DNA of 64,000 bases from Dehalococcoidia bacterium (GTDB lineage Bacteria > Chloroflexota > Dehalococcoidia > Lucifugimonadales > UBA3495). The notes under the pieces were generated by a model. The model searched no databases, was not told the DNA's origin, and saw nothing but the letters and a program-made list of their open reading frames with translations. Numbering within the stretch: the first letter of the stretch is position 1; every line of letters starts with the position of its first letter. A program made the position numbers and the translations under genes. The stretch lies in assembly GCA_965208015.1 (NCBI GenBank), contig CBDBNT010000003.1, positions 305,832 through 369,831 of the forward strand, given 5' to 3'. Positions 6,613 to 44,962 of this stretch are shown in pieces.

Positions 6613-6626
6613 CCACACAGCCAACC

Positions 6627-7763: not shown

Positions 7764-8422
7764 TGGCGACGCGACAAGAAGGTTCGCAAGTCATTCATCT
7801 CGAACGCCCCTGTCTGCTTCTGGTTGAAGGGGCGGATGACTATTGGTTTTTCCGGCGGATCATCGAGCGTCGACAAAGTGCAGGCATACAAATTATCGAA
7901 TTCGGTGGGAAGGATACGCTGGGTGAATTTTTGACAAACGTCCTTGTTCCCCGTGTCCGGGGTACTGATATAGTCCGGATCATCGGCATAGTGAGAGATG
8001 CCGATGATTTTTATGACCGTGCGTACCAGAGTGTTGGCGACTCCCTGAGGCGCGCCCGCTTGCCCGTCCCCCGAGGGCCACTAATGTATGCGAATGGCAT
8101 GCTAGACGACACTACCATTCGAACAGCAGCGTATATCATTCCCGACAATGGTTCGCCGGGCGACCTCGAAACCTTGTGCCTTCAAGCAGTCCGTGATGTG
8201 CCGGCAATCCCCTGTGTTGACGGTTATTTCGACTGCTTGGAGCTAATAGGCCACGTTCCCCGCCAGGAAAGCAAAGCCCGCTTACAAGCTTTCCTTGCGG
8301 CGAACCCGGACAATCCCACATTGCGGATCGGGGAAGCAATCGCAGCCGGCGTCATCCCTTGGAACAGCCCGGCGTTCACCGGCGTCCACCAATTCCTGGA
8401 TATGCTGGACGCCGCCAACTAG
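7760..8422 (+). CDS. TOPRIM-like (DUF4435/DUF3226-style) protein, 220 aa, partner of the ATPase
   Basis: ATGA overlap with the ATPase stop (7760-7763). LLLVEGADDYWFF (conserved Glu) and IGIVRDADDF (DxD) acidic motifs as in OLD/TOPRIM-type nucleases. Confidence 0.7.
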   Translation: MMATRQEGSQVIHLERPCLLLVEGADDYWFFRRIIERRQSAGIQIIEFGGKDTLGEFLTNVLVPRVRGTDIVRIIGIVRDADDFYDRAYQSVGDSLRRARLPVPRGPLMYANGMLDDTTIRTAAYIIPDNGSPGDLETLCLQAVRDVPAIPCVDGYFDCLELIGHVPRQESKARLQAFLAANPDNPTLRIGEAIAAGVIPWNSPAFTGVHQFLDMLDAAN

Positions 8423-8449
8423 GTTCACACGACGCCAGGCGATCCCACA

Positions 8450-9574
8450 TCACCGCAGCACCCGGTTCAGCGCCGCGTGCCGACCCGGGTCCAGGTCCTT
8501 CCCGGCAAGGGCCGGGTGGTCGGGGCTGTAGCGGTGACAGCGGAAGGTGGCGTTAGTGTATTCCATGCCGCCACCGCCACCAGCGGCTTCGCTGTAGAGG
8601 AAGAACGGGTTGATGTACTCCCAGACGATCTCGCCTCGGGGAGTGACCTCGAACATGCGGCCCGGCGCGCCCTCGCAGATCAGCGTGTTGCCGTTGGGCT
8701 GCCGCTCCGCGCTGCTGATGTTGTAGCTGTAGAAGGAAATGGCGGGCATTCCCCGGTACTCCCAATGGATCTCGTTGGTTGCCGGGTCCACCTCCACGAC
8801 GCGGGAGAAACTGGTGCCGGGCCGGTGGGACCCGTTGTCGAAGATCAGCACCCGTCCGTTGTCCAGCCAGGTTGGATGATGTTGCTGGTAAATCTCGCCC
8901 GGGCCCCACTTCCACTTGAAGGCTCCAGTGGCACGGTCCACGATGCCCACGGTGCTGGTCAAACGGTAGCTGACCAGCAGGTCACCGTCAGGCGTGACGT
9001 TCAGGCAATTCCCGTGGGTCCATTCCCGCCGGGCATCCGGACCGATAATGTCTTCGGTCGGATCCAGATGCTCCCAGGATTTCCACTCCCAAACAGTCGC
9101 GCCGTCCGGCGTCACTTCACGAACCACGTCGCCAAGCATCCCGGGGGCAAAATCCACCTCGAAGCCTCCCTGTACCTGGTCTTCCAGACCATCGGGCAGC
9201 GGCTCCCACAGCAGCAGCAGAGTGTTGCCATTGGGCAGGCGCTCATAGTCATGGTGGAGCGTGTTGTCCCGGTAGGCCCAGACCAGATTGCTGTCCCAGT
9301 CCAGTTCGATGATGCTGGCCGAGGAGCCGCCTACCGTCTCGATGCCGCCGGCGTCCTCGGGCGGTAAGGTACGGCACAGCAGGTTGCCGTTGTCCAGCAA
9401 GTAGGAATAGTGGATGCCCTCAGGAGAATGCCACCGGTGGACGACGTTGCCCTGCATATCAATCAGGTAAGCGTCCTTGCCGCCGCGCGTGGTCGAAAAA
9501 AGCGTGTAGCCGCGATTGCACGCTGCGGGTGTGTGATGGATCAGTCCGACTGGATGGTGAATCGACCAGCCCAT
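8450..9574 (-). CDS. Arylsulfotransferase (ASST)-like beta-propeller protein
   Basis: 374 aa with repeated NGN(L/T)L and W-E-W/Y blades, resembling the aryl-sulfate sulfotransferase family. Assignment from motif memory only. Confidence 0.6.
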   Translation of the reverse strand: MGWSIHHPVGLIHHTPAACNRGYTLFSTTRGGKDAYLIDMQGNVVHRWHSPEGIHYSYLLDNGNLLCRTLPPEDAGGIETVGGSSASIIELDWDSNLVWAYRDNTLHHDYERLPNGNTLLLLWEPLPDGLEDQVQGGFEVDFAPGMLGDVVREVTPDGATVWEWKSWEHLDPTEDIIGPDARREWTHGNCLNVTPDGDLLVSYRLTSTVGIVDRATGAFKWKWGPGEIYQQHHPTWLDNGRVLIFDNGSHRPGTSFSRVVEVDPATNEIHWEYRGMPAISFYSYNISSAERQPNGNTLICEGAPGRMFEVTPRGEIVWEYINPFFLYSEAAGGGGGMEYTNATFRCHRYSPDHPALAGKDLDPGRHAALNRVLR

Positions 9575-9606
9575 TCGTGTACCTCCGCTAATTCAAATCC
9601 GGCGCG

Positions 9607-9612
9607 ATTATA
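9607..9612 (-). promoter_or_regulatory. -10 box TATAAT (minus strand) for the ASST-like gene
   Basis: Plus-strand ATTATA at 9607-9612, 33 nt upstream of start 9574. Confidence 0.5.
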
Positions 9613-9740
9613 GCAGGGGAGCCGGCGCGGCCCCTGCTTGCGCGCGGGTTATACTGCGTGGGCCTTACGCCGCCAACAGCCGAAGCCACGAGCGCTGTGC
9701 GTGGTGATACTCTCACGGTCCCAAGGATGGCGCCTTAGTC

Positions 9741-10637
9741 GTGTGGATCTTCCTGGCCATCTGTAGCGCCGCTTCGCTCGGCCTCGCGAACGTTGCCCAC
9801 AAAAGGCTGCTGGACAACTACCTTGAGGGAGTTGGAGCGCTGGGCGCCGGTTCGATCGTTACACGATCTGTATGCGCGGCAATAATCCTGATCGCCATGG
9901 GCTGGCCGGTGGGCGCGCCGGCTCAATCGGTTGCCATCGCCCTGCTGTCGGGCGTGAGCTTGGGGTCAGGGCTTCTGCTGCTGTTCCTGGGCCTCAAACT
10001 GGGCGAGGCCTCGCGCGCCGTGGCGGTAAGTCAAACCAACCCGATACTGGTCGCCCTGCTGGCGATGGTGATACTGGGTGAGACCATCACCGCCCCGCAG
10101 TGGGCGGCGATTGCGCTGGTGGTCGTCGGTGTCGCGCTGGTTTCCATTGAAGGATTCGGCCGTGGGCTGCTGAGACTGACGCCGGGGCTGACGGTGCTGG
10201 TGGGCAGTTCCATCACCCTGGGCCTGTCGTTCTTCCTGGCCAAACTGGTGCTGACCGACCTGACGCCGTGGGAAGTGTTCGGGTTGCAGGAACTGGGGAT
10301 GGTGCCGGCCTTCGCGGTTTACGGACGGCCGGAAAACTGGCGTCGGTTATTCCGCGGATTGCGTTCCGGGCCAGGTCTGGCGACTTTCGTCATCGGTGAG
10401 GGCTTGCTGCCCCAGTTGGCCATCATGCTGTTCATCTGGTCCTTCAGCCTCGGGCCGGTGTCGCTGGCGTCGGCGATCCTGGCCACCCGTCCGCTGTTCG
10501 TGTTCGTGGTGGGCACGATGCTCAGCTGGCGGACGTTCGGGATGATGCAGGAATCGCTGCGGCCCAGCGCGCTGGCAGCCAAGGGCGTCGCCATCCTGAT
10601 GATCGTCGGCGGGACGACGGTGCTGGCTGCGCTATGA
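9741..10637 (+). CDS. EamA/DMT-family transporter
   Basis: 298 aa, about 10 hydrophobic helices arranged as two EamA-like halves. Confidence 0.8.
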   Translation: MWIFLAICSAASLGLANVAHKRLLDNYLEGVGALGAGSIVTRSVCAAIILIAMGWPVGAPAQSVAIALLSGVSLGSGLLLLFLGLKLGEASRAVAVSQTNPILVALLAMVILGETITAPQWAAIALVVVGVALVSIEGFGRGLLRLTPGLTVLVGSSITLGLSFFLAKLVLTDLTPWEVFGLQELGMVPAFAVYGRPENWRRLFRGLRSGPGLATFVIGEGLLPQLAIMLFIWSFSLGPVSLASAILATRPLFVFVVGTMLSWRTFGMMQESLRPSALAAKGVAILMIVGGTTVLAAL

Positions 10638-10648
10638 CGATGGGCAGC

Positions 10649-11317
10649 CTATCCTGGGCCGGGGGTGGCTCCACTGTCCGGCCGGCGGGAGCGCACTGCC
10701 CAGAAGTGCACCGCACCCACCACTATGAAGATGCCCAGGCAGTAACCAACGGCTCCCCAACCGACGCCAAAAACCGCTCGGGCCAGCGCCATGGAGGTCA
10801 GATAGATGAACGGCAGCGCGATAATGGTGCTTCTGGTAAGCAGCAGGACCGCGATGCACGGCAGTGCCATAATCAGCACCGCGGCGGGCAGCGCGGCGCC
10901 GGTAATCCCCAAGGCCGTAGCCGCTCCGCGACCGCCGTGAAATTTCAGCCAGACCGGCCAGATTTGCCCGGCCATGGCAGCGGCGCCGGCCAGCATTCCT
11001 GCCGGAGTCAAGGCGAAGACCGGTGCTAGTGAGTCGGGCAATCCGGAAGGGCTGCCGGCCAGCGCGGGGTTGACCAGACGGAACAGCAGGTTGAACGCCA
11101 GCACCGCCGCCACGCCTTTGGCGATGTCCACGGCTCCCACCAGAATGGCCCAACGCCGGCCGCAGATGCGGTTGACGTTGTTGGCCCCGGCGTTCCCGTC
11201 GCCGGCCTGACGGATGTCAACCGCGCCGCTGGTGACCCATCGCACTACCAGGTAGGCGGTGGGTATGCTGCCCAGCAGGTAGCCCCCCAGGGCGGCCGCG
11301 CCGAGCAGCCCGAGCAT
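10649..11317 (-). CDS. plsY: Glycerol-3-phosphate acyltransferase PlsY
   Basis: GSIPTAYLV and GDGNAGANNV motifs, multi-TM, typical length. Confidence 0.85.
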   Translation of the reverse strand: MLGLLGAAALGGYLLGSIPTAYLVVRWVTSGAVDIRQAGDGNAGANNVNRICGRRWAILVGAVDIAKGVAAVLAFNLLFRLVNPALAGSPSGLPDSLAPVFALTPAGMLAGAAAMAGQIWPVWLKFHGGRGAATALGITGAALPAAVLIMALPCIAVLLLTRSTIIALPFIYLTSMALARAVFGVGWGAVGYCLGIFIVVGAVHFWAVRSRRPDSGATPGPG

Positions 11318-13156: not shown

Positions 13157-14339
13157 CTCACGCGTACCCACTTTGAGTTGAAGGGTTGAAAAAGGTCGGC
13201 CTCTCCGGGTAAGGAACGGGTTACCAACCACCGTTTCCACCAGGGGAGGACGACCATGCCATGGTATCACCAGGTTGCCACATTTCTGAACGATGCACTG
13301 CCGCAGTTTCGAGCCACTCGTCGCGCCAATCTGGTGCTGCTCACTGCGGCCATTCTCCAGCGGCGCACCCTGGTGATCTCGGTGTTGGTACGGTCGTGGC
13401 ACGTTCAGCTGCCCTATTCTCACCATCAGCGTAAGAAGCGGCTGTTTCGCTTTCTGTCCAACACCGCTTTTGATAGCGTAACGGTGCAGACGGCATTGTT
13501 GGGGACCATTTGTCAGACGGCCCGATTGCGGGGACTGGTTCCCATCATGATTGACTGGTCGGATCTGGGCCAGGGACGCAACGGTTTGTTTGCGGCCGTC
13601 TGCTTTCGGGGTCGTGGGCTGCCCTTGCTCAGCTGGGTGTCCACGCCGGCAGAGTTGGACCCGTCCCAGAACCGAGTGGAGGAGTTCTTCATCGGTCGGC
13701 TGTTGCGCCACTTGCCCGCCAACATCCGGCCCCTGCTGCTGGCGGACCGAGGCTTCGGGCGGGCCAGCCTGCTCCGCTTCGTGCAGCAGATGCCTAACCA
13801 CACCGGCTATCCCGTGGACTACGTAGTGCGTCTCAAGGGCGACGTGGTGGTGCAGCGCGCCGATTATCGCGGTCGGTTGCGGGACTATCCCTTGCGCAAG
13901 GGCCGGATCAACTTCTGGCCGCAAACCCTTTACCGATCCGACGGCGCCGTGGTCATCAATTTGGTCTTGTACTGGGCCCGTGGCCATCGGGAACCCTGGT
14001 ATCTGGCCACGTCCCTGACTGATCCCCGACTGGCAGTGAAGATGTATCGGAAGCGGATGCAACCGGAGCAGTACTTCAAGGATGGCAAGCAGCGCTTCGG
14101 GCTGGACCGCAGCACGGTAACCACCACCGCCCGGCTGCAACGGCTGCTGGTAGCGCTGCTCCTGGCCTGCTGCTTGCTGATACTGGCAGGAATGCGCGCC
14201 TCGCCAACCTTCCGACGACAGGTCTGCTCCCGGGGCAAATTGGGCATCTTACACTTGGGCTACGAATACTACCTGGCCACTCCCGACCCACCCGACGACT
14301 TCTTCACCATTGCACGCCGACAAACCGGGTACGCGTGAG
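13157..14339 (+). mobile_element. IS4-family insertion sequence, 1183 bp, intact
   Basis: Terminal inverted repeats CTCACGCGTACCC (13157-13169) and GGGTACGCGTGAG (14327-14339). Flanked by a 10-bp direct repeat. Single DDE transposase ORF whose stop lies inside the right IR. Confidence 0.85.
13256..14338 (+). CDS. IS4-family DDE transposase
   Basis: 360 aa. DWSD and LADRGFG acidic motifs, and Y-x2-R-x3-E-x6-K signature in YRKRMQPEQYFKDGK. Confidence 0.85.
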   Translation: MPWYHQVATFLNDALPQFRATRRANLVLLTAAILQRRTLVISVLVRSWHVQLPYSHHQRKKRLFRFLSNTAFDSVTVQTALLGTICQTARLRGLVPIMIDWSDLGQGRNGLFAAVCFRGRGLPLLSWVSTPAELDPSQNRVEEFFIGRLLRHLPANIRPLLLADRGFGRASLLRFVQQMPNHTGYPVDYVVRLKGDVVVQRADYRGRLRDYPLRKGRINFWPQTLYRSDGAVVINLVLYWARGHREPWYLATSLTDPRLAVKMYRKRMQPEQYFKDGKQRFGLDRSTVTTTARLQRLLVALLLACCLLILAGMRASPTFRRQVCSRGKLGILHLGYEYYLATPDPPDDFFTIARRQTGYA

Positions 14340-18936: not shown

Positions 18937-19213
18937 GCCGTCGCCGCCGGGCCAATCAAATAGCGCGGACATGGCAACTGTTCAGACTTGAGGGGAGCCT
19001 CCCCAGTGCAAAGCCGTCCTACCGGCGCAAGAACGGCCGGCTCCACGTCGGAGAGCGGGGCCGGTACCTGGAAATCCTTGCCACGCTTGCAGTTGCCTGC
19101 GACCTTGACGCCGGATTGAGTCGGATCGTGTTGCGGTAAGCACAGATTATCTGGGAAACGGGCGGGTGACTTTGGCCGGCAGCTTTGCCTGGCTTCTAAC
19201 TCAGGGAGGTTGA

Positions 19214-19489
19214 TCAGCCCCTATGGCCCCGGCCTATATCGGAATCCCAAAGCCGCAGGAACATGAGAGCCTTGCGCCCACCGACATAGTACGCTGTTGC
19301 TCCAATGATTCCGAATAGGAGGAATACTACGATTTGCAAGATCAGAAGGGGTCCTCTAGGCAATGCGAGCACCGCATCGTGGAGGCTTGTCGGCGCGAAA
19401 TGTACAAATATCACGATGGGCAGAACGCCACATGCTCCTCCGACAACCGAGCAGGATATCATGAAGATATACGTAATAGGTTTTCGCAC
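19214..19489 (-). CDS. Hypothetical small membrane protein (91 aa)
   Basis: Three hydrophobic segments, lower G+C than surroundings, no recognisable family. Confidence 0.4.
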   Translation of the reverse strand: MRKPITYIFMISCSVVGGACGVLPIVIFVHFAPTSLHDAVLALPRGPLLILQIVVFLLFGIIGATAYYVGGRKALMFLRLWDSDIGRGHRG

Positions 19490-19535
19490 GACGTCTCGCC
19501 TCCCGAGGAAATGCTTGCGCCGGGTTCGCCCGAAC

Positions 19536-20252
19536 CTAATTCGCCTTGGCCACTACGGCCAATGCGGCCCGCGCCGCCTCGGTTTCGGCGGCGTTTTTGC
19601 TGCGACCCACGCCGGCGCCCAATACGTCGCCGTCCACTGCCACTTCAACGGTGAATTGAGGTTGATGCGCCGGTCCGGAGGACGCCACTACCCGGTAGGT
19701 TGGCGTGGGTTGGCCCTGCCCTTGCAGCAATTCCTGGAGTTCCGCCTTGGGGTTGTCCGGTCGCCAGCCGGGCTTGCAGGCCGCGGTTAGAGGTTCCGAC
19801 AGGGCGTGCAGCACCAATTCGCGCGCCGCGGCGTTGCCCTGGTCCAGGTAGACGGCGGCGATGACCGATTCCATGACGTCGCCCATCACGGCTTCGCCGG
19901 CCCGCCCGCCCGACGCTTCGAACCCGCGCCCAAGAAGAACGTACTCGGCGAGGCCGAGATCCCGGGCCGCGTCGGCCAGCGCGCGTTGACTGAGCAGGGA
20001 AGTCCAGCGCCGGGTCAGGCCGCCCTCATCGCATTCCGGCAGGCGGCGGTACAGCTCCTCGCTCACGATGAGGCGCGCCACCACGTCCCCCAGGAACTCG
20101 AGACGCTCGTAGGAATCCGTATCTGAACCGCCGGTCTCGTTGACGTAGGAGCGATGGGTCAACGCCTGAATGAGCAAGCCCCGGTCCCGAAAGCTCAGGC
20201 CCAGGGCTTGTTCCAGTTCGGCGACCGGGCGATTTGCGCCGGGCGAACTCAT
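19536..20252 (-). CDS. rnc: Ribonuclease III
   Basis: ERLEFLGD signature and C-terminal dsRBD. ATG 20252 (MSSPGANRPVAELEQALG) is preferred over track start 20288. Confidence 0.9.
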   Translation of the reverse strand: MSSPGANRPVAELEQALGLSFRDRGLLIQALTHRSYVNETGGSDTDSYERLEFLGDVVARLIVSEELYRRLPECDEGGLTRRWTSLLSQRALADAARDLGLAEYVLLGRGFEASGGRAGEAVMGDVMESVIAAVYLDQGNAAARELVLHALSEPLTAACKPGWRPDNPKAELQELLQGQGQPTPTYRVVASSGPAHQPQFTVEVAVDGDVLGAGVGRSKNAAETEAARAALAVVAKAN

Positions 20253-20268
20253 CCGGTGTCGAGCGCCG

Positions 20269-20901
20269 TTATCCGCGCACACCCTCATAGGGCCACGGCG
20301 GGGACGGTCGCTTGACCTCGCCCACGTGCTTGTGGTCGGCCATCATCTCGACCAGATTGTCGTAGATGGGTCCCGACTCGTCGTCGGACGGAATGAACAT
20401 CTTGACGAAGGCGGAGTTGCCGTTCGGGAAGACATAGAGGGGCACGCCGAAGGCGCCGTGCACTTCCACGGCCTCGGTGTGGCTCTCGCCGATCTCGCGG
20501 AGCACGTCCGGATCGGCCAGGTCCTCGGCAAACTGGCCCATGTCAACGCCCGACGCCTCGGCCACGGCGTTGATGGCGTCCGCGTCGGTCAGGTCGATGC
20601 GATCTTCGTGGCGAGCCTTCAGCAGGTTGATGAAGAAGCGGTCGAAGATCTCCTCGCCCTGGCGCTGCGCGGCGATGCCGGCCCGCAGCTCGAGCAGCGT
20701 GTTGTCCGAGTCGTCCTGCTCCCAGTACTTGAACCCGTCGTCGTTGTTGTTGTCGTGATTTACCTGGACCAGCGAGAATGGCTTCAGATCCACGGCGATT
20801 TCGTGGTCGGTATTCTCGCGTACTTTCGCCCACCACATGGCAGCGTTGTACACGAAGGGTCAACGAAAGTCGTAATAAACGGTGAAATCAGTTTCGGCCA
20901 T
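20269..20901 (-). CDS. DsbA-like thioredoxin-fold selenoprotein (210 aa) with in-frame UGA (Sec) at 20862-20860
   Basis: GGGAGG SD 8 nt before ATG 20901. The sequence MAETDFTVYYDFR-TGA-PFVYNAAMWW... is in frame with track ORF 20269..20853. The TGA sits at the redox-Cys position of the DsbA/FrnE-type (F/Y)xDFxCPxxY motif. Confidence 0.7.
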
Positions 20902-21057
20902 GATTTGGACCTCCCTGTCTGTGTTTGACCGTTGGTCCCGGGTGGGTTTTCCGGGTTCACTTGGTTCGTGGGCGGATTGTAGCACAGACGACTTCGGACT
21001 GGGCAAGTGTCAACCTGTCAACGCTGGAAGTGAGTTCGCACGAACTCACCGAGGGAC

Positions 21058-21157
21058 GTCAGAATCAGGATTTCCAGGATTTCGAGATTTACTGGATTGG
21101 AGCCATCCGATGAAAAAGAACACCCAATCCTGCAATCCCGCAAATCCTGATTCTGAC
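21058..21157. repeat. MITE-like palindromic element (100 bp) with perfect 16-bp terminal inverted repeats
   Basis: GTCAGAATCAGGATTT (21058-21073) versus AAATCCTGATTCTGAC (21142-21157). The arms contain 8-9-nt periodic GGATT / AATCC sub-repeats. Confidence 0.55.
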
Positions 21158-21188
21158 GACTTCCCGGCGCAAACCGGGTACGCATGAG
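21155..21188 (+). mobile_element. Relic of the right end of an IS related to the 13157-14339 element
   Basis: GACGACTTC...CAAACCGGGTACGCATGAG matches the IS 3' end (GACGACTTC...CAAACCGGGTACGCGTGAG; 18/19 in the terminal block). No transposase follows. Confidence 0.4.
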
Positions 21189-21243
21189 ATCGTTGCATTC
21201 ATAACTTCGATGCAAACGCAACGGCACTATGCGCGAATCGTAA

Positions 21244-21272
21244 TTGACCCGAAATAGGCAGATTGCTACAAT
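21244..21272 (+). promoter_or_regulatory. sigma70-like promoter (TTGACC-17-TACAAT) for P450 gene 1
   Basis: -35 at 21244-21249, -10 at 21267-21272 preceded by TGc. Confidence 0.6.
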
Positions 21273-21354
21273 TGCCCAAACGCGGCGACAATAGCCGCTG
21301 GTCATCTATGCCCGGCGGTGAGTTTGACCATGAAAAGTCAACGGGAGGGACTTT

Positions 21355-22641
21355 ATGGTTACCACCTTTAACGAAAACCTGTTTTCCCCTGAAGTCATCC
21401 AGGACCCGTATACGTACTTCGGCCGGATGCGCGAGGAGGATCCGGTTCACTGGAATGACCCCTACAAGCTGTGGGTCATCACCAAGTACAAGGACTTGGT
21501 TTGGGTCACCCGGCGCCCCGAAGCGTTCTCTTCCGAGGTATTCCACCGCGACCCGTTGCCTCCGTACCCTTCGATCGACGAGTCGGACATGGGCCTCTAC
21601 GAGGACGTGCGGAACTTCTTCAGCCAGTGGTTCATTCAGACCGACCGGCGCGCGGTCAGCACTCACGAGCACATTCGCGAGCACGGCGGCCCGGACCACA
21701 CCGACATGCGGAAGGTCATCCACGGCTACTTCACCCCCAAGGCCATGGAACTCTGGCGCCCGCTGGTGCAATCGGCCATCAAGCAGTTGCTGGACGAGGC
21801 CGAAGAGCGCGGCCACATGGACGTGATGCGCGACTACGCTACGCCGCTGCCGCTGCTGGTGATCGCCGCCATGATGGGCATCGAGACCTACGACCGGCAG
21901 TTCATCCGCTCGCTGGCCGAGAAACTGCTGTTCATCGGCCGGGGCAACGCCGACCGGATGCAGCCGCTGTCCGAAGGCATCACCGAGCTTCAGGACTACC
22001 TGCGGCCCATGGTCAAAGCCCGCCTGGACAATCCCAACGGCGACCTGCTGGACAAGATGACCGACGCCGCCCGCACTACCAACGCGGCCGGACAGCGCAT
22101 CATGGACGAAGAGCAGGTGGTCGCCAACGCCATCCTGTTGCTCCTGGCCGGTCACGAGACCACCATCAACCTGATCTGCAACGGCACCCGGGCGTTCATG
22201 GAGCACCCCGACCAGTGGGAACTGTTCAAGAGCGACCCCGCCGGCAAGATGATCCGCGCTACCGAGGAGTGCCTGCGATACGACCCGCCGGTCAAGTCCA
22301 TCACCCGCATCGCCGGTGAGGACGTCGAACTGGGCGGCAAGCTCATCCAGAAGGACGAGCGGATGCGCTGGTTCGTCACCTCCGCCAACCGTGACCCCGA
22401 AGTGTTCGACCGCCCCGACGACTTCGACGTCGAGCGGTATCCGAATCCTCACGTGGCCTTTGGCAGCGGCATTCACCACTGCCTGGGCGCGACCCTGGCG
22501 CGGCTGGAAGGGCAGGAAGCCTTCAAGGCCCTGGCCGAGCGGTTCCCGAACCTCAACATGAACTGCAACTCCGACGACCTCACCTATACCTCCAGCATCA
22601 CTTTCCGCACGCTGGAGACGCTGCCGGTGAGCCTGTCGTAA
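21355..22641 (+). CDS. Cytochrome P450 (paralog 1)
   Basis: I-helix LLLLAGHETT, ExxR (ECLRYD), heme loop FGSGIHHCLGATLARLE. Confidence 0.9.
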   Translation: MVTTFNENLFSPEVIQDPYTYFGRMREEDPVHWNDPYKLWVITKYKDLVWVTRRPEAFSSEVFHRDPLPPYPSIDESDMGLYEDVRNFFSQWFIQTDRRAVSTHEHIREHGGPDHTDMRKVIHGYFTPKAMELWRPLVQSAIKQLLDEAEERGHMDVMRDYATPLPLLVIAAMMGIETYDRQFIRSLAEKLLFIGRGNADRMQPLSEGITELQDYLRPMVKARLDNPNGDLLDKMTDAARTTNAAGQRIMDEEQVVANAILLLLAGHETTINLICNGTRAFMEHPDQWELFKSDPAGKMIRATEECLRYDPPVKSITRIAGEDVELGGKLIQKDERMRWFVTSANRDPEVFDRPDDFDVERYPNPHVAFGSGIHHCLGATLARLEGQEAFKALAERFPNLNMNCNSDDLTYTSSITFRTLETLPVSLS

Positions 22642-22668
22642 TCGGTTCGCAAATCCCCGCAGGGTTAC

Positions 22669-22705
22669 GAGGCCCGGCGAACATTCGCCGGGCCTCGGCT
22701 TTTGT
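22669..22705 (+). terminator. Rho-independent terminator after P450-1
   Basis: 12-bp stem GAGGCCCGGCGA / TCGCCGGGCCTC, 4-nt loop, then GGCTTTTGT. Confidence 0.75.
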
Positions 22706-22708
22706 CGC

Positions 22709-22737
22709 TTGCAAGCACGGCGTTCGGAGCCTATAAT
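22709..22737 (+). promoter_or_regulatory. sigma70-like promoter (TTGCAA-17-TATAAT) for P450 gene 2
   Basis: -35 at 22709-22714, -10 at 22732-22737. Confidence 0.65.
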
Positions 22738-22809
22738 CGGCGCATCAGAGCAGTTTGATCTGCGTAATTCGTCGGCAAATCACGTGTCGCACACCGGAGG
22801 TCGCAGGAA

Positions 22810-24069
22810 ATGGTCAGCACTATCAACGACAACCCATTCTCTCTGGAAGCGATGTACCAACCCTACGAGTTTTTCGCGCGGCTGCGCGATTGGGAGCCGG
22901 TACACTACAACGAGGAGTACGAGGTCTGGATGGTCACGGACTGGGAGCACCTGGTATGGGTGACCCGGCACCCGGAGGTCTTCTCGTCCAGCGTGTTCGC
23001 CCGGGACCCCCGGCCGCCGAACCCGCCCATCGACGAAGACGACATGGAGATCTACAACTACATCAAGAAGTGGCAGGTCTCCCGGTTTATCCAGCACGAC
23101 CAGAAGCGGTACAACCCCGGGGTCAGCGGGCCCGACCACGTGGACATGCGCCGGGTGATGCACGGTTACTTCACCCCCAAGTCCATGGAAATGTGGCGCC
23201 CCCTGGTTCAGTCGGCCATCGATGAACTGCTGGACGCCGTGCAGGAAAAGGGCCGCATGGACGTGATGGCCGATCTGGCCACGCCGCTGCCCCTGCTGGT
23301 CATCGCGCGGATGCTGGGCATCCCGGACAGCGACCGCCCCATTATGCGCCGGCTGGCCAAGGACCTGCGCCACCTGAACCGGACGGGCCCAAACCGCATG
23401 GGTCCCCTATCCGAATCGGTGCAGAACCTGCAGGACTACCTGGGCCCGCTGTGCGACGAACGCATCGCCAACCCCAAGGACGACCTGATCTCGGTCGTTG
23501 CCGAAGGGGCGCGGCGCGGCATCTTCGACCGCGACATGGTGGTGAACAACGTGATGCTGCTGCTCTCCGCGGGTCACGAGACCACCATCAACCTGATCTG
23601 CAACGGCACCCTGGCCTTCACCCAGCACCCGGACCAGTGGGCGATCCTGAAGTCGGACCCTGAAGGCAAGACCGTGCGCGCCACCGAAGAGTGCCTGCGG
23701 TACGACTCGCCGGTGAAGTCCATCCAGCGCATCGCCATGGAGGACATGGAGCTCAACGGCCAGCAGATCAAGGAGAATGACCGGGTGCGGTGGTTCATCT
23801 CCGGGGCCAACCGGGATCCCAAGGTGTTCGACCGGGCGGACGACTTCGACGTCGAGCGCTACCCCAACATGCACGTGGCCTTCGGCAGCGGCATCCACCA
23901 CTGCCTCGGCGCGACCCTGGCGCGGCTGGAAGGGCAGGAGATATTCCGCAACCTGGCCAACCGCTTCGAGAGCCTGGAACTGGAAGTCCCGGCCGAGACG
24001 CTGGAATACGACCAGCTCATCGGCCTGCGGGCGCTGGAATCGCTGCCGGTGACGGTCACCAACGCATAG
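22810..24069 (+). CDS. Cytochrome P450 (paralog 2)
   Basis: LLLSAGHETT, ECLRYD, FGSGIHHCLGATLARLE. Confidence 0.9.
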   Translation: MVSTINDNPFSLEAMYQPYEFFARLRDWEPVHYNEEYEVWMVTDWEHLVWVTRHPEVFSSSVFARDPRPPNPPIDEDDMEIYNYIKKWQVSRFIQHDQKRYNPGVSGPDHVDMRRVMHGYFTPKSMEMWRPLVQSAIDELLDAVQEKGRMDVMADLATPLPLLVIARMLGIPDSDRPIMRRLAKDLRHLNRTGPNRMGPLSESVQNLQDYLGPLCDERIANPKDDLISVVAEGARRGIFDRDMVVNNVMLLLSAGHETTINLICNGTLAFTQHPDQWAILKSDPEGKTVRATEECLRYDSPVKSIQRIAMEDMELNGQQIKENDRVRWFISGANRDPKVFDRADDFDVERYPNMHVAFGSGIHHCLGATLARLEGQEIFRNLANRFESLELEVPAETLEYDQLIGLRALESLPVTVTNA

Positions 24070-24095
24070 CCGCAACGACGACATCAGGCGCTTTC

Positions 24096-24131
24096 GTGCG
24101 CCGGGGAGGGTTATACGCCTCCCCGGCGCAC
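24096..24131 (+). terminator. Strong hairpin (14-bp stem) after P450-2, weak T tract
   Basis: GTGCGCCGGGGAGG / CCTCCCCGGCGCAC with an 8-nt loop, followed by ACCCATTTAAT. Confidence 0.5.
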
Positions 24132-24207
24132 ACCCATTTAATGGCGCTGTACGGTCAGCTGTAAGCCGGACCAAGCGCGAACGACTGCACTTCGTGCGAA
24201 TATCGGT

Positions 24208-24213
24208 TATAAT
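24208..24213 (+). promoter_or_regulatory. -10 box TATAAT for P450 gene 3
   Basis: TATAATCGGC is identical to the P450-2 -10 context. The -35 is poor. Confidence 0.5.
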
Positions 24214-24283
24214 CGGCCAATCTCAAGGCGCTGCGGGCTGTTGGGCCGGCAGCCATGTCAACGTACCACCGGAGGTACAACCA

Positions 24284-25555
24284 ATGGTAACCACCTTCAA
24301 CGACAATCCGTTTTCGCCGGAAGCGATCTACAAGCCCTATGACTTTTACAATCGGCTGCGCGAGCACCAGCCGGTGTATTACAACGAGCAACTCGAGGTG
24401 TGGATGATCACCTCGTGGGAACACTTGGTGTGGGTCACTCGGCATCCGGAGGCATTCTCGTCCAGCGTGTACGCGCGGGACACGCGCGCCCCGAACCCAC
24501 CGATCGATGAAGACGACATGGAACTCTACAACTTCATCAAGAAGTGGCAGGTTTCACGGTTCATCCAGCACGACCAGCGCCGGTACAATCCCGACGTCAG
24601 CGGCTCGGACCACATCGATATGCGACGGGTGATGCACGGCTACTTCACCCCCAAGTCCATCGAAATGTGGCGCCCCCTGGTGCAGTCGGCCATCGACGAG
24701 TTGCTGGACGCCGTCGAAGCGAAGGGTCGGATGGACGTAATGGCCGACCTGGCCACCCCGCTGCCTTTGCTGGTCATCGCCCGGATGCTGGGCATCCCGG
24801 ACAGTGAGCGGGAGCGGCTGCGCGAACTGGCCAAGGACCTGCGATTCCTCAACCGTGAGGGTCCCGACCGCATGAAGCCGCTGACTCAGGCGGTGCAGAA
24901 CCTGCAGGACTTCATTGCGCCAATGGTCGAGGACCGGATGACCAACCCCGAGAACTTCGATGCAACCGACCTGATGTCCGTGGTCTGCGAAGGTGAACGG
25001 CAGGGGGTGTTCAACCGGGATATGACCGTCAACAACATCATGCTGCTGCTGTCAGCCGGACACGAGACCACCATCAACCTGATCTGCAACGGCACGCTGG
25101 CATTCACCCAGCACCCGGAACAGTGGGCAATCCTGAAGTCCGATCCGGAAGGCAAGACCGTCCGCGCGACTGAAGAGGCGCTCCGGTATGACTCGCCTGT
25201 CCGGTCCATCCAGCGCATCGCGATGGATGATATCGAGCTGAACGATCAGCTGATCAAGAAGAATGACCGGGTCCGCTGGTTCATCCCCGGCGCCAACCGT
25301 GACCCCAAGGTTTTCGACCGCGCCGATGACTTTGACATCGAACGGTACCCGAACCAGCACGTCGCTTTTGGCAGCGGCGTCCATCACTGCTTGGGCGCAA
25401 CCCTGGCCCGGCTGGAGGGTCAGGAGATCTTCCGGAACCTGGCCAACCGCTTCGAGAAGGTCGAGCTGGAGATCCCGGTGGAAGAGGTCGAGTACGACCA
25501 CGTCCTCACCTTCCGCGCGGTGGAGAGCCTCCCGGTGAAGGTGACCAGCGCATAG
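24284..25555 (+). CDS. Cytochrome P450 (paralog 3)
   Basis: Start ATG 24284 (MVTTFNDNPF) after GGAGG. LLLSAGHETT, EALRYD, FGSGVHHCLGATLARLE. Confidence 0.9.
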   Translation: MVTTFNDNPFSPEAIYKPYDFYNRLREHQPVYYNEQLEVWMITSWEHLVWVTRHPEAFSSSVYARDTRAPNPPIDEDDMELYNFIKKWQVSRFIQHDQRRYNPDVSGSDHIDMRRVMHGYFTPKSIEMWRPLVQSAIDELLDAVEAKGRMDVMADLATPLPLLVIARMLGIPDSERERLRELAKDLRFLNREGPDRMKPLTQAVQNLQDFIAPMVEDRMTNPENFDATDLMSVVCEGERQGVFNRDMTVNNIMLLLSAGHETTINLICNGTLAFTQHPEQWAILKSDPEGKTVRATEEALRYDSPVRSIQRIAMDDIELNDQLIKKNDRVRWFIPGANRDPKVFDRADDFDIERYPNQHVAFGSGVHHCLGATLARLEGQEIFRNLANRFEKVELEIPVEEVEYDHVLTFRAVESLPVKVTSA

Positions 25556-25591
25556 TCATACCGGCGCACGCAAACCCACATCGAACATCGA

Positions 25592-25628
25592 GCCGGCGGT
25601 CGCAAGAGTGGCCGCCGGCCATGTTTTT
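25592..25628 (+). terminator. Rho-independent terminator after P450-3
   Basis: GCCGGCGG..CCGCCGGC stem followed by CATGTTTTT. Confidence 0.6.
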
Positions 25629-25643
25629 GAGCAGACCCTCGGT

Positions 25644-25672
25644 TTGAATTGTAGAACCGCTTGTGATAATTT
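25644..25672 (+). promoter_or_regulatory. sigma70-like promoter (TTGAAT ... TGtGATAAT) for P450 gene 4
   Basis: -35 TTGAAT at 25644-25649. Extended -10 TGTGATAAT at 25662-25670. Confidence 0.5.
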
Positions 25673-25708
25673 TGACCGCACCGACGACCACCTACTCAGG
25701 GGTTCACT

Positions 25709-26938
25709 ATGCCCGCAAACATCCACGACGACCTGTTCGCCGCCGAGGCGATCCGCGATCCGTACGGCTATTTTGGAGCCCTGCGGGCCGAGGCGCCGGT
25801 TCACTGGAACGAGCAGTACCAGATGTGGGTGGTGACCAGCTACGAGCGGCTGGTGTGGACGGCCCGGCATCCCGAATACTTCTCCTCCGAAGTGGCGCTG
25901 CGCGACAACAAACCGCCTTCTCCCACGATCCCCGAAGAGGACATGGAACTCTTTGGCGCCGTGCGGAATTGGATGGCGGCCCGGTTCACCCAGAACGACG
26001 GCGCGAAGCACAAGGAAAAGCGCAAGGTGGTTCACGGCTTCTTCACGCCCAAGGCGATGGAAACTTGGCGTCCGTTGGTCCGCCAGACGGTGAACGACCT
26101 GCTGGACGACCTTCAGGGCGCCGGCCGCATGGACGTCATGCATGACTTCGCCACGCCGCTCACCTACAGCATCATCGCCGGCCTGATGGATATACCGCCC
26201 AGCGACCGCGCCTTCGTCAAGGAGCTGTGCAGTAGCATGTGCGGTTTCGACGGGAACCAGCCGGACCGGATCCGGATGTACGCGGAGGGCGTGCAGGCGG
26301 TGACCGACTACTTGGCTCCCATCGTGGCCGAGCGGGTCCGGGACCCGGGCGACGACCTGCTGTCGGTGATCTGCAAAGGCGAGATCATGGGAGCGTACAC
26401 CCGCGATGAGGTGCTGGCCAATGCCCTCCTGCTCCTGGTCGCGGGACACGAAACCACCAACGACCTGATTTCCAACGGAGTGCTGGCATTCGCACAACAC
26501 TCCGACCAGTTTGACCTCCTGCGAACCGACCCTGACGCCCACATCGTTAACGCCGTCGAGGAAGTGCTGCGATACGACTCTCCGCTGAAATCAATCCAGC
26601 GTGTCGCGACCCAGGACGTGGACATGGGCGACGGGCAGCAGGTTGGCAAGGACGACCGCGTGCGTTGGGTGATCTCGTCGGCCAACCGCGATCCGGAGGT
26701 CTTTGAGGAGCCGGACGCCCTGGATATCACGCGCAATCCGAACCCCCACGTGGCCTTCGGCAGCGGCGTTCACCACTGCCTGGGTGCCACCCTGGCGCGG
26801 CTGGAAGGGCAGGAAGCCTTCGCCGAACTGGCACGCCGCTTCGAGGGGTTCGAACTGGAAACCGATCCCAACGACTTGGAATACCTGCCCAGCGTGGGGC
26901 AGCGCACCCTGCTGAACCTGCCGGTTGCAACACGCTAG
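25709..26938 (+). CDS. Cytochrome P450 (paralog 4, most divergent)
   Basis: LLLVAGHETT, EVLRYD, FGSGVHHCLGATLARLE. Confidence 0.9.
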   Translation: MPANIHDDLFAAEAIRDPYGYFGALRAEAPVHWNEQYQMWVVTSYERLVWTARHPEYFSSEVALRDNKPPSPTIPEEDMELFGAVRNWMAARFTQNDGAKHKEKRKVVHGFFTPKAMETWRPLVRQTVNDLLDDLQGAGRMDVMHDFATPLTYSIIAGLMDIPPSDRAFVKELCSSMCGFDGNQPDRIRMYAEGVQAVTDYLAPIVAERVRDPGDDLLSVICKGEIMGAYTRDEVLANALLLLVAGHETTNDLISNGVLAFAQHSDQFDLLRTDPDAHIVNAVEEVLRYDSPLKSIQRVATQDVDMGDGQQVGKDDRVRWVISSANRDPEVFEEPDALDITRNPNPHVAFGSGVHHCLGATLARLEGQEAFAELARRFEGFELETDPNDLEYLPSVGQRTLLNLPVATR

Positions 26939-27006
26939 CCGCCGGTCGCCGCAACCATGCTGGCGAACACCCTCGTTCGCCTGACCATCACGAGGAGGTT
27001 ACCCCG

Positions 27007-27231
27007 ATGGCCCGACAGCTGAAAATCACCGTGGACTACAACGTGTGCGTGGGCAACGCCATGTGCGAGACCTTCGCGGAAAACACTTTTGGCCTGAACG
27101 ATGACCGGCAGTCTTACGTTAAGGACCCGGCCGGCGATCCCGAGGAAACCATCATCGAGGCGGCGGAAAACTGCCCGGTCACGGCGATCACCGTGGAGGA
27201 CGCGGAGACCGGGGAGATTTTGTTCCCGTAG
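27007..27231 (+). CDS. Small ferredoxin, 3Fe-4S type (P450 redox partner candidate)
   Basis: 74 aa. C-x5-C...CP pattern (YNVCVGNAMCE ... AENCPVTAI). GAGGAGG SD. Confidence 0.85.
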   Translation: MARQLKITVDYNVCVGNAMCETFAENTFGLNDDRQSYVKDPAGDPEETIIEAAENCPVTAITVEDAETGEILFP

Positions 27232-27258
27232 AAAGTCGGCATCCAACTGGATACCATG

Positions 27259-27289
27259 GGGGCGAATGATCATTCGCCCCTACATTTTT
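27259..27289 (+). terminator. Rho-independent terminator ending the P450/ferredoxin array
   Basis: Palindrome GGGGCGAATGATCATTCGCCCC followed by TACATTTTT. Abuts the stop of the convergent LLM gene. Confidence 0.6.
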
Positions 27290-28293
27290 GCAATCACTTC
27301 CTCACCGAACCTGCGAATAATATCCGCCGGGTCGTGGCTGATGGCCGTGATCTGCAAAACGTCGGCGCCGGACTCGGCGACCTCGACAACCTTGGCGCGG
27401 CATTCCTCGGGAGTGCCAACTACAGCGAACCGGTCGGCCAGGTAGTCAGTCACCCCGAGCTCATCCGACAACGCAGCGTTGCGCGTTGCGCCTACCTGCT
27501 CGTGTTCCGCCGGCACGTACTCCCCCTGGATGATCTGCATCGCTTCGTGAAGCTCGGGCGGGACGTGCTTCCCTTCCAGGGTGAAGCGGAAGGCGTGGTG
27601 CGCACTGGCGGACAGCGCCATTCGGATCTCGTCGATGGCGTCGCCGCTGTCGTCCGAGATGTTGCACTTTGCGAAGGCCCAGACCTCCGTGGACCCCGCC
27701 GGTTTGCCCGCGTCGGCCTCCCCTTCGCGGATGCGCGACACGGTGTCGGCCAGGATTTCGGGCGTGAGCCCAGTGTGGACCATGACCCGGTCGGCGATTT
27801 CTCCGGCCATGCGCAGGGTCCGCGGACCCTCGGCGGACATCATTATGGGGACGGGATCACTACTCCAGCGTACATGCCCCTCGCGACCCAGGTACTCCGC
27901 AGTTTCCCCGGCCAGGAAATCCCGGACCGCGGCGACGTAATCGCGCAACGCCCTCATACGTGCCGGCCGGAGCCCCAGGTTCAGGATCGCGCTGTCGCCG
28001 GTGCCTATGCCAAGAAACGCCCGTCCCTCCGACAATTCCTGTAGCGAGGCGATGGCCGAGGCGGTCACCGCCGGATGCCGCGTCAGCGGGTTGGTTACCG
28101 ACGGGCCGAGATGCACGCGTGAGGTCTCAGTAGCCGCAACGGCCAGCGAGACGAAAAGCTCGCGGAAGAGCGATTGCGAGTCCGCGACGCCGATGTAGTC
28201 AAACCCAACCGCCTCCGCGAGACGAACGTGGCGGCGAAAGGATTTGTAGGAACTGGGCAGGAGGGTCACGCCGTATTTCATGGTACGTTCCAA
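27280..28293 (-). CDS. LLM-class (luciferase-like) flavin/F420-dependent oxidoreductase
   Basis: 337 aa with a bacterial-luciferase-family pattern (DYIGVADSQSL..., LGIGTGD). Confidence 0.85.
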   Translation of the reverse strand: MERTMKYGVTLLPSSYKSFRRHVRLAEAVGFDYIGVADSQSLFRELFVSLAVAATETSRVHLGPSVTNPLTRHPAVTASAIASLQELSEGRAFLGIGTGDSAILNLGLRPARMRALRDYVAAVRDFLAGETAEYLGREGHVRWSSDPVPIMMSAEGPRTLRMAGEIADRVMVHTGLTPEILADTVSRIREGEADAGKPAGSTEVWAFAKCNISDDSGDAIDEIRMALSASAHHAFRFTLEGKHVPPELHEAMQIIQGEYVPAEHEQVGATRNAALSDELGVTDYLADRFAVVGTPEECRAKVVEVAESGADVLQITAISHDPADIIRRFGEEVIAKM

Positions 28294-28325
28294 CGTGGAT
28301 CGAGCTGTCTGTGATTCCGGGACGC

Positions 28326-28331
28326 TATACT
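28326..28331 (+). promoter_or_regulatory. -10 box TATACT for the Uma2 gene
   Basis: 44 nt upstream of ATG 28375. GGAGG SD follows. Confidence 0.35.
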
Positions 28332-28374
28332 ATACACGTCGCATGCTTTCTGACGGCGCGATGGAGGCCAGGCC

Positions 28375-28935
28375 ATGACTACCGCACGGAAACTGCTCAC
28401 CGCCGACGACCTGCTGGCGATGCCCCGGGACGGCTATCGCCACGAACTGGTACGGGGGGAACTGATAACAATGCCGCCGCCCGGAATCATGCACACCAGG
28501 ATCACTGGACGCTTTTGCCGTCGCATTGGCAATTTCATTGAGGAACACGACCTTCCTTATGTCGATGGCCCCGAGGCCGCCGCCTACACTGAGCAGAACC
28601 CCGATACGGTTCGCGCCGCCGATTACGCCATTTACCCCCTACACGATCTGTCTGGTCCTCTGCCAGATCGCGGCTACGTCCTCGGTCTGGTTCCCGTGCT
28701 GGCAGTGGAAGTAATTTCTCCGGGCTACCGTTCGGCCGCCGGCGTCGCCGAGCGGGTGCGGATGTGGCTGGGGGCCGGCCTACAGATGGTTGTGATCGCC
28801 CATATTGCCACCCGCGAAATTGTCACCCATGGCAGTGACGGCGCAGAGCATACATTCACCACCGGAGACACCTTCACCCTGGAGCCGATACTTCCCGGTT
28901 TCGCCTGCCCGGTGGACGATCTTTTCGCCGTCTAG
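28375..28935 (+). CDS. Uma2-family (DUF820) endonuclease-fold protein
   Basis: N-terminal LLTADDLLAMPRDGYRHELVRGELITMPPPG and PD-(D/E)xK-like core typical of Uma2. Confidence 0.8.
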   Translation: MTTARKLLTADDLLAMPRDGYRHELVRGELITMPPPGIMHTRITGRFCRRIGNFIEEHDLPYVDGPEAAAYTEQNPDTVRAADYAIYPLHDLSGPLPDRGYVLGLVPVLAVEVISPGYRSAAGVAERVRMWLGAGLQMVVIAHIATREIVTHGSDGAEHTFTTGDTFTLEPILPGFACPVDDLFAV

Positions 28936-28952
28936 CCCCGCCCGTCCAACCT

Positions 28953-28979
28953 GAATTCCGGCTTTCGCCGGAATGACGG
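28953..28979 (+). repeat. REP-like hairpin repeat (family GGATTCCnGCTTTCGCnGGAATGACG)
   Basis: GAATTCCGGCTTTCGCCGGAATGACGG, followed by a half copy CGGAATGACGG at 28985-28995. Intergenic. Confidence 0.8.
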
Positions 28980-29008
28980 GATCACGGAATGACGGAAAAC
29001 GCGGATAG

Positions 29009-44904: not shown

Positions 44905-44962
44905 AAAAACCCTCCTGTTGCCTGGTGGCACGCGTCGGCCAAAAAGTGAAAACGGTGGGCCG

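Follow-up and report, generated by a model that had tools for sequence, protein, structure and literature searches.

A tandem array of four cytochrome P450 genes and one ferredoxin gene was analysed in a 64,000-nucleotide stretch of a Dehalococcoidia bacterium genome (GenBank assembly GCA_965208015.1, contig CBDBNT010000003.1, positions 305,832 to 369,831 of the forward strand). This whole stretch is called the window, and coordinates refer to it unless a related locus is named. The array is likely to be a class I cytochrome P450 system of repeated autonomous gene cassettes. Comparison with related genomes favours separate promoter-coding sequence-terminator units for P450-1, P450-2 and P450-3 and a bicistron of P450-4 with the ferredoxin, because hairpins and -10 boxes are conserved at the junctions and insertions between the genes are tolerated.

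Gene order and conservation of the array

The five open reading frames (ORFs) of the array are co-oriented on the forward strand. P450-1 (21355-22641, 428 amino acids [aa]), P450-2 (22810-24069, 419 aa), P450-3 (24284-25555, 423 aa) and P450-4 (25709-26938, 409 aa) belong to ortholog groups P1, P2, P3 and P4, and matched Pfam PF00067 with 86, 83, 92.5 and 84 bits, respectively (gathering cutoff 22.8). The start of P450-3 was set by alignment and a GGAGG ribosome-binding site to ATG 24284, not GTG 24194. The 74-aa ferredoxin (27007-27231, forward strand) matched Fer4_13 with 41.5 bits (cutoff 24.5). A luciferase-like (LLM) oxidoreductase gene, convergent to the array, follows on the reverse strand (27280-28293; Bac_luciferase, 181 bits). 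An earlier interpretation made from the DNA alone (the sequence-only reading) had placed four P450 genes, a 74-aa ferredoxin and a convergent LLM gene here, and the ORFs agreed with it exactly.

One genome per species was searched, and the array locus was found in 51 species-level Dehalococcoidia/Chloroflexota metagenome-assembled genomes (MAGs), one of which was labelled 'SAR202 cluster bacterium bin87'. The best database homologues were 86-88% identical. The NCBI record of one homologue bears the name of the sponge Geodia barretti, and one locus came from that sponge's assembly; the isolate names RHO3, IRC4 and SB06xx resemble, as we take it, those of sponge-microbiome MAGs. An exact-sequence search with P450-2 retrieved no contig, and no fetched locus was identical to the window, the closest having ~92% DNA identity. 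The order P450s, ferredoxin, convergent LLM gene was found in 51 of 51 species. AroC and AroE lie downstream in most loci (some fetched stretches end earlier), and the upstream flank varies between subclades. Most species have four P450 copies; seven have three (P1, P3 and P4), and nine have five, the additional one being an extra P1-type copy (P1'). Orthologs are 80-99% identical.

An opposite-strand module of two ORFs, absent from the window, lies between P3 and P4 in 18 species. Elsewhere, an ISAs1-type DDE transposase was found between P2 and P3 in L016 (~9264-10660), and in L020 and L024 a SocA/Panacea-domain gene separates P2 from the second P1-type copy. Accessory genes seem to insert preferentially into the array spacers.

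The 18 loci with the P3-P4 module are L002-L005, L009, L010, L015, L016, L018, L020, L021, L024, L025, L032, L037, L040, L047 and L050. The insert is ~620 bp long (e.g. L004, 10747-11518) and holds two overlapping conserved ORFs of ~96-119 aa and 81 aa, the latter ending in ...EAALESLY(S/T)DH. Its layout is suggestive of a HicAB-like toxin-antitoxin pair, but Pfam gave no match for either ORF and the suspicion was not upheld. The P1-P2 spacer carries insertions in L021 and L036, and a 381-aa protein without an assigned family was also present among the spacer genes.

Putative transcription signals at the junctions

Hairpins were sought in the first 85 nucleotides (nt) after the stop codon of the upstream gene, and those of -18 kcal/mol or stronger were counted as strong. 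Strong hairpins were present at 98% of P450-P450 junctions (n = 161, median -28.5 kcal/mol), at 0% of P450-ferredoxin junctions (n = 53, median -6.9 kcal/mol) and at 59% of ferredoxin-LLM junctions (n = 51, median -21.8 kcal/mol). In shuffled controls the median was -16.3 kcal/mol and the strongest hairpin reached -21.9 kcal/mol. The P450-P450 hairpins begin ~27 nt past the stop codon, and they persist while their stems differ among lineages (GAGGCCCGGCGA, ATGCCCGGAGG, GGGGCGGGT, GAGTGCCCGGAGTG).

P450-1 is preceded on the forward strand by a promoter-like site at 21244-21272 (TTGACC, 17 nt, TGC-TACAAT, an extended -10). All 53 of 53 related loci had the pattern TTGACC-N16-18-TAnAAT 76-86 nt 5' of the ATG of their first copy, whatever the upstream neighbour; the conserved element, TTGACC-N17-TGnTAnAAT, was present in all 53 first copies at ~83 nt from the ATG. 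P450-1 is followed by a hairpin at 22668-22697 (22668-22706 with its T-run; forward strand) of 13 pairs and then TTTT. Hairpins of at least 18 kcal/mol strength with differing stem sequences were found at all 46 P1-P2 junctions (median -29.7 kcal/mol). The site before P450-2 (22709-22737, forward strand) reads TTGCAA, 17 nt, TATAAT. This TATAAT was invariant in 38 aligned junctions amid variable DNA, and all 46 P2 copies carried the -10-like box, ~71 nt from the ATG. After P450-2, a hairpin at 24096-24131 (forward strand) has a 14-bp stem and an 8-nt loop with no adjacent U-tract, and 98% of 43 P2-P3 junctions had a strong hairpin.

The site before P450-3 (24185-24213, forward strand) has a weak -35 (CTGCAC), 17 nt and TATAAT (24208-24213) inside the conserved AAATCGGTTATAATCGG; the element GGTTATAAT was found in 50 of 53 P3 copies, ~70 nt from the ATG. 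The hairpin after P450-3 (25592-25619, to 25628 with its T-run; forward strand) has 12 pairs and then TTTTT, and a strong hairpin was present in 98% of 50 P3-P4 junctions. P450-4 is preceded by TTGAAT ... TGT-GATAAT (TGTGATAAT) at 25644-25670 (forward strand). GTTTGAATTgT...TGTGATAATTT is conserved in aligned junctions before P4, and the element TTGAAT...TGTGATAAT was found in 45 of 53 copies at ~38 nt from the ATG. Most of the nine second copies (P1') carry TTGACA-17-TACGAT. The forward-strand spacer between P450-4 and the ferredoxin (26939-27006, 68 nt) has no strong hairpin and no -10 box and ends in a GAGGAGG ribosome-binding site; TAnAAT occurred in only 3 of 53 such spacers. Between the ferredoxin and LLM genes lies a hairpin with a T-run (27257-27282) that is a possible bidirectional terminator.

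The promoter-like sites agree with sigma-70-type promoters in spacing (16-18 nt) and conserved position, with 10 of 12 matches for those of P1 and P2. The hairpins after P450-1, P450-3 and the ferredoxin, but not that after P450-2, have the stem and U-tract of intrinsic terminators. The hexamers and hairpins listed in the sequence-only reading were all present. Counted in the window alone they are not above chance (3 promoter-like sites against 1.7 ± 1.4 expected, 6 terminator-like sites against 6.6 expected), and their significance comes only from conservation in related genomes. The promoter regions of P2 and P3 are alike (TATAATCGG, similar leader length), which suggests that the duplicated unit included promoter and terminator.

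An Rfam scan of 19000-29000 at E up to 1 gave no match, hence no known riboswitch or leader in the 5' regions. A small hairpin (GCCGCTGG ... CCGGCGGT) in the 83-nt leader of P450-1 (21273-21354) is retained in other lineages, where some of the changes are compensatory. No structured regulatory leader is proposed here: RNAalifold gave just 4 pairs with weak covariation (-2.8 kcal/mol), and the fold of the leader alone had a z of -0.86.

Divergence and selection among the paralogs

Pairwise identity was 58.5% for P1-P2, 55.9% for P1-P3, 50.2% for P1-P4, 79.5% for P2-P3, 52.0% for P2-P4 and 49.5% for P3-P4. When window copies were compared with their orthologs, the ratio of nonsynonymous to synonymous substitution rates (dN/dS) was 0.01-0.16 over all four groups (P1 0.03-0.16; P2 0.01-0.08; P3 0.03-0.08; P4 0.03-0.07), values at which each ortholog group appears to be under strong purifying selection. 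The alignment of 419 columns contained 133 invariant and 78 group-specific ones, defined as conserved within each group (at least 90%) and different between groups.

Group-specific sites were densest at positions 81-100, 161-200, 241-260 and 401-410. These stretches were taken as the B-C loop, the F/G region, the I helix and the C-terminal beta-hairpin, an assignment made from motif anchors and from what is generally known of P450 structure, not from a ligand complex. The four regions are the classical P450 substrate-recognition regions. The sequence-only reading had expected paralog divergence and had set against it near-neutral recent duplicates with identical recognition sites. The identities, the four ortholog groups and the group-specific residues in the presumed recognition regions bear out divergence; identical sites are the opposite of what was found. 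The four groups are probably specialised on different substrates or different attack positions.

Probable duplication history

A neighbour-joining tree of 221 copies resolved four monophyletic ortholog groups, with one member per genome and the same positional order. The branching was (P1,(P4,(P2,P3))), with bootstrap values of 100 for P2+P3 and 92 for P2+P3+P4. The P3 copies of three-copy genomes nest within the P3 group, which suggests that these genomes lost P2.

An outgroup contig, L067 (3.4 Mb), carries two P450 copies and the same 74-aa ferredoxin (77% identity) at 6577-9486. Its first P450 is P1-like (67% identity to P1) and is drawn as sister to P1 (topology only); its second is nearest in identity to P2 (62%) and joins the tree at the root of P2, P3 and P4. 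This contig is an intermediate two-copy stage, and by the tree the first duplication would be older than the split from its lineage. A single P450 of the same family, 57-60% identical, was found in soil Alphaproteobacteria (Stellaceae MAGs), with a 74-aa CVGNAMC ferredoxin (68-76% identical) 9-10 nt 3' of it. From this single pair, with identities of 59% for its P450 and 69% for its ferredoxin, and from the two-copy contig, the ancestral unit appears to be a P450-ferredoxin pair.

The pair would have been duplicated stepwise in a Dehalococcoidia (SAR202-labelled) lineage, apparently long before the present species diverged. P1 would have separated from the rest first, then P4, then P2 and P3, with newer copies piling up upstream of the ferredoxin-bearing copy. 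P4, beside the ferredoxin, kept the ancestral position yet diverged most in sequence. The amplification had been described in the sequence-only reading as lineage-specific; as a recent or narrow event this did not hold, with four groups in the same order in most of 51 species and a first duplication that predates the two-copy outgroup.

In the alphaproteobacterial loci (L052-L057, L064-L066) an Amidohydro_2 gene always adjoins the P450-ferredoxin pair, on either side. These genes are 85-96% identical among themselves and have no homologue in the window. This neighbour may be a clue to the ancestral substrate.

Features of the P450 proteins

The heme loop FGSG(I/V)HHCLGATLARLEGQE is invariant across the four copies, as the sequence-only reading had it, and so are EExLR and the I-helix AGHETT; FGSG(I/V)HHCLG, EExLR and AGHETT were also invariant in 38 family members. 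The sequences thus contain the heme-thiolate loop FxxGxxxCxG, the K-helix ExxR and the I-helix acid-alcohol pair of the P450 superfamily. The acid-alcohol pair is a mark of O2-activating monooxygenases. Because all three motifs are kept, the four proteins are predicted to be canonical O2-activating monooxygenases. A shared N-terminus of the form MVTTFN(E/D)N, also claimed before, is present in copies 1 and 3, is approached in copy 2 (MVSTINDN) and is not found in copy 4 (MPANIHDD). P450-4 diverges most, at 48-52% identity to the other copies, and its B-C loop is shorter. A PPxPxI(D/P)E(D/S/E)DM segment is conserved in the B-C loop.

The best solved relatives by sequence were BioI (CYP107H1; E 3e-65), PksS (CYP107K1; E 2e-64) and a reconstructed CYP125 ancestor (CYP125MRCA), at ~33-36% identity; identity to BioI was 35.7% over 384 aligned positions. 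Other solved CYP107, CYP109 and CYP125 structures were 30-34% identical. By the convention of CYP nomenclature, members of one family share more than 40% identity. The comparison covered solved structures rather than the full CYP name list, and against these the copies fall outside CYP107, at less than 40% identity to a named member. No NCBIfam equivalog model passed its cutoff for the P450s. An AlphaFold2 model of P450-2 (predicted local distance difference test [pLDDT] 79, predicted template modelling score [pTM] 0.80) matched BioI and PksS with template modelling (TM) scores of 0.80-0.81 (Foldseek E 2e-23). The CYP125 ancestor was again among the fold neighbours, which continued with CalO2, CYP109 enzymes and PikC (TM ~0.8, 28-34% identity).

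Ferredoxin and electron supply

The ferredoxin contains exactly three cysteines, C14-x2-N-x2-C20 ... C56-P (CVGNAMC...CP). The motif and the cysteine count were constant in 63 of 63 ferredoxin homologues. It has the features of the CXX?XXC(X)nCP class, with a non-Cys second position, a later CP and three Cys, and it is only distantly related to solved ferredoxins (best E 2.5e-8). The Asn variant (CXXNXXC) binds [3Fe-4S] experimentally in Mycobacterium marinum Fdx4, and such ferredoxins adjoin and support P450s in that organism (PMC6237146). By motif and likeness to Fdx4, the window ferredoxin is probably of the [3Fe-4S] type, in line with the sequence-only reading, which had named this type.

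Neither a ferredoxin reductase nor a transcription regulator was found among the 48 window ORFs scanned against Pfam, with ~20 small ORFs outside the scan; the sequence-only reading had likewise seen neither. The nearest flavoprotein is a Baeyer-Villiger-type monooxygenase (43270-44931). 2-Oxoglutarate:ferredoxin oxidoreductase has been suggested as a source of reduced ferredoxin in SAR202 (Landry et al., PMC5395668). In the proposed system all four P450s would probably draw their electrons from the one [3Fe-4S]-type ferredoxin, and this would in turn be reduced by a reductase encoded elsewhere in the genome.

Flanking genes and other elements of the window

The array is flanked by housekeeping genes (PdxS/T, thymidylate kinase, RNase III, AroC, AroE, ValRS). 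The neighbouring LLM gene qualifies only as a member of the general Bac_luciferase family; F420-specific models of NCBIfam were below cutoff (PRK02271, 169 against 276; TIGR03842, 164 against 295). LLM genes also lie near P450-ferredoxin genes in two other lineages, and the LLM protein was therefore considered as a functional partner. This idea was weakened by the identity of just 20-28% between those proteins and the window LLM, and the recurrence may be due to the mere abundance of LLMs in these genomes. A Uma2-family putative endonuclease gene (28375-28935) lies between the LLM gene and aroC. Its presence varies among related genomes (63-92% identity), and RmuC can stand in its place.

A long imperfect inverted repeat (21049-21167) separates P450-1, ~190 nt upstream of which it lies, from a divergent DsbA-like gene. 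Its arms are 33 nt each (21057-21089 and 21126-21158), and its RNA fold has -48.7 kcal/mol (z -5.5). It occurs once in the window and had no Rfam match; L005 and L008 have part of it at the corresponding place. At 6612-8422, an AAA_15/AAA_21 ATPase gene adjoins one for a DUF3226 protein that matched OLD-like TOPRIM weakly, a pair that resembles a two-gene defence module. A DDE transposase is encoded at 13256-14338.

Discussion

In the arrangement that we consider likely, each copy would be read from a sigma-70-type promoter of its own, with a 38-83-nt leader and a ribosome-binding site before the gene and a strong hairpin at its 3' end. P450-1, P450-2 and P450-3 would probably be monocistronic, and P450-4 would probably be co-transcribed with the ferredoxin. 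The sequence-only reading, in which every P450 was a separate unit, is in this way favoured for copies 1-3 by the comparative signals; copy 4 would share its unit with the ferredoxin. Several points weigh against this arrangement. The hairpin after P450-2 lacks a U-tract, and at least four T follow within the next 10 nt at just 54% of junction hairpins. The -35 of the P450-3 promoter is weak, and promoters and terminators alike were inferred from sequence and conservation alone. P450-1 to P450-3, if expressed alone, need ferredoxin from the P450-4 promoter or another locus, a dependence that fits poorly with independent control. Neither reductase nor regulator turned up among the scanned ORFs of the 64 kb. 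The copies had been called individually controllable; no regulator or operator was identified for them, and promoters by themselves do not demonstrate differential control. The mean pLDDT of the model is only 79, and the recognition regions were placed by motif anchors; the substrate class has no support beyond ~33-36% identity to enzymes of very different substrates.

A single five-gene operon read from the P450-1 promoter, its hairpins serving as RNA stabilisers, processing elements or partial attenuators that set the product ratio, would account for five co-oriented genes with short spacers and for the need of every copy for one distal ferredoxin. The missing U-tract after P450-2, the 46% of junction hairpins with fewer than four T in the following 10 nt and the window-only counts that do not exceed shuffled expectation are on its side as well. 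We nevertheless consider it unlikely. The -10 hexamers are invariant at a fixed distance before each copy in otherwise variable intergenic DNA, the opposite-strand module between P3 and P4 in 18 species and the insertion sequence (IS) or other genes elsewhere leave the downstream genes intact, and the only hairpin-free P450 3' spacer is the one before the ferredoxin, where co-transcription is expected. The copies might also be recent, near-neutral tandem duplicates with redundant function, as their tandem arrangement and identical heme loop would allow. This was counted as refuted, with next to no probability left to it: the paralogs are 50-80% identical against 80-99% for same-position orthologs in dozens of species, dN/dS is 0.01-0.16, and 78 differences are fixed by group.

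It is also quite improbable that the P450s are biosynthetic, whether in BioI-like C-C cleavage of acyl-ACP for pimelate (a biotin precursor) or in natural-product tailoring. BioI and the bacillaene enzyme PksS are the best matches in sequence and structure, and the source name of one homologue is 'Biotin biosynthesis cytochrome P450 [Geodia barretti]'. Identity to BioI is nevertheless only 35.7% over 384 positions, with no NCBIfam equivalog at cutoff, and one biosynthetic step needs no four diverged paralogs. The flanks are housekeeping genes, and no bio genes, polyketide synthase, nonribosomal peptide synthetase, terpene synthase or carrier protein were present among the scanned ORFs. The syntenic loci held no bio genes either, so that BioI was matched neither by equivalog nor by operon context, and the 'biotin biosynthesis' name is without support from gene context.

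Acyl chains, polyketides and sterols are the substrates of the nearest solved relatives, a loose hint at hydrophobic aliphatic or alicyclic compounds and at nothing more specific. From these long aliphatic, polyketide or sterol-like substrates, the most likely role of the array would be the hydroxylation of hydrophobic organics available to the bacterium, possibly from a sponge host. The recalcitrant or terpenoid-like organics named in the sequence-only reading are a guess. A further reading, possible but less likely than not, sees in the array a signature adaptation of a Dehalococcoidia/SAR202 clade that lives with sponges, in which a horizontally acquired P450-ferredoxin cassette became 3-5 separately expressed modules, each tuned to a different lipid derived from the host or holobiont. 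If this were true, the lipids could be sponge sterols, terpenoids, or long-chain or halogenated metabolites, and a few evolvable oxygenases, all supplied by one ferredoxin, would let the symbiont transform compounds of its host.

SAR202-type Dehalococcoidia, abundant bacteria that have not been cultured, are regarded as oxidisers of recalcitrant organic matter, and their relatives in sponges are major symbionts. For these bacteria the array is a defined, conserved set of four diverged oxygenases with a probable cognate ferredoxin. The five short soluble proteins are open to direct expression and screening, which would make the general claim of many oxidative paralogs testable. The array is also a tandem amplification whose duplicated unit appears to be a complete promoter-gene-terminator cassette.

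Comparison with known systems

The mechanism, a class I P450 with a [3Fe-4S]-type ferredoxin, is already known, and mycobacteria are known to have several P450s close to one such ferredoxin. What is new is a P450 family less than 40% identical to any solved P450, the strict tandem order of its 3-5 paralogs, each apparently an autonomous cassette, and the conservation of this array in more than 50 species. One close likeness is to M. marinum Fdx4, which lies beside CYP269A1 and CYP138A4 (PMC6237146). Both systems have soluble P450s, a small single-cluster ferredoxin with Asn for the second Cys, one ferredoxin neighbouring more than one P450 and, as presumed for the window, a reductase encoded elsewhere. 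The window differs in its 3-5 same-family paralogs in strict tandem with their own promoter-like and terminator-like signals, in its 74-aa ferredoxin and in its host, which is a Dehalococcoidia bacterium and not an actinobacterium. BioI and PksS of Bacillus subtilis share the catalytic motifs and are the best sequence and fold matches, whereas the window proteins are ~33-36% identical to them, have a longer B-C loop and lack a bio or pks context.

Literature on SAR202, sponges and Chloroflexi together with P450 gave general mentions only, and the main account of sponge SAR202 genomes (PMC6306507) is silent on P450s. Landry et al. (2017, PMC5395668) reported that SAR202 genomes each encode several versions of P450, beside expanded luciferase-like monooxygenases, and read the oxidative paralogs as tools for oxidising recalcitrant organic matter. 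The window resembles these expansions in its several P450s and in the LLM gene adjoining the array; that paper describes CYP125-type P450s in general terms, and a tandem array, a ferredoxin partner and a transcription architecture are found here and not there. The Stellaceae unit has the same P450 family with the same 74-aa ferredoxin directly downstream, and differs from the window in its one P450, its gap of 9-10 nt and its adjacent Amidohydro_2 gene.

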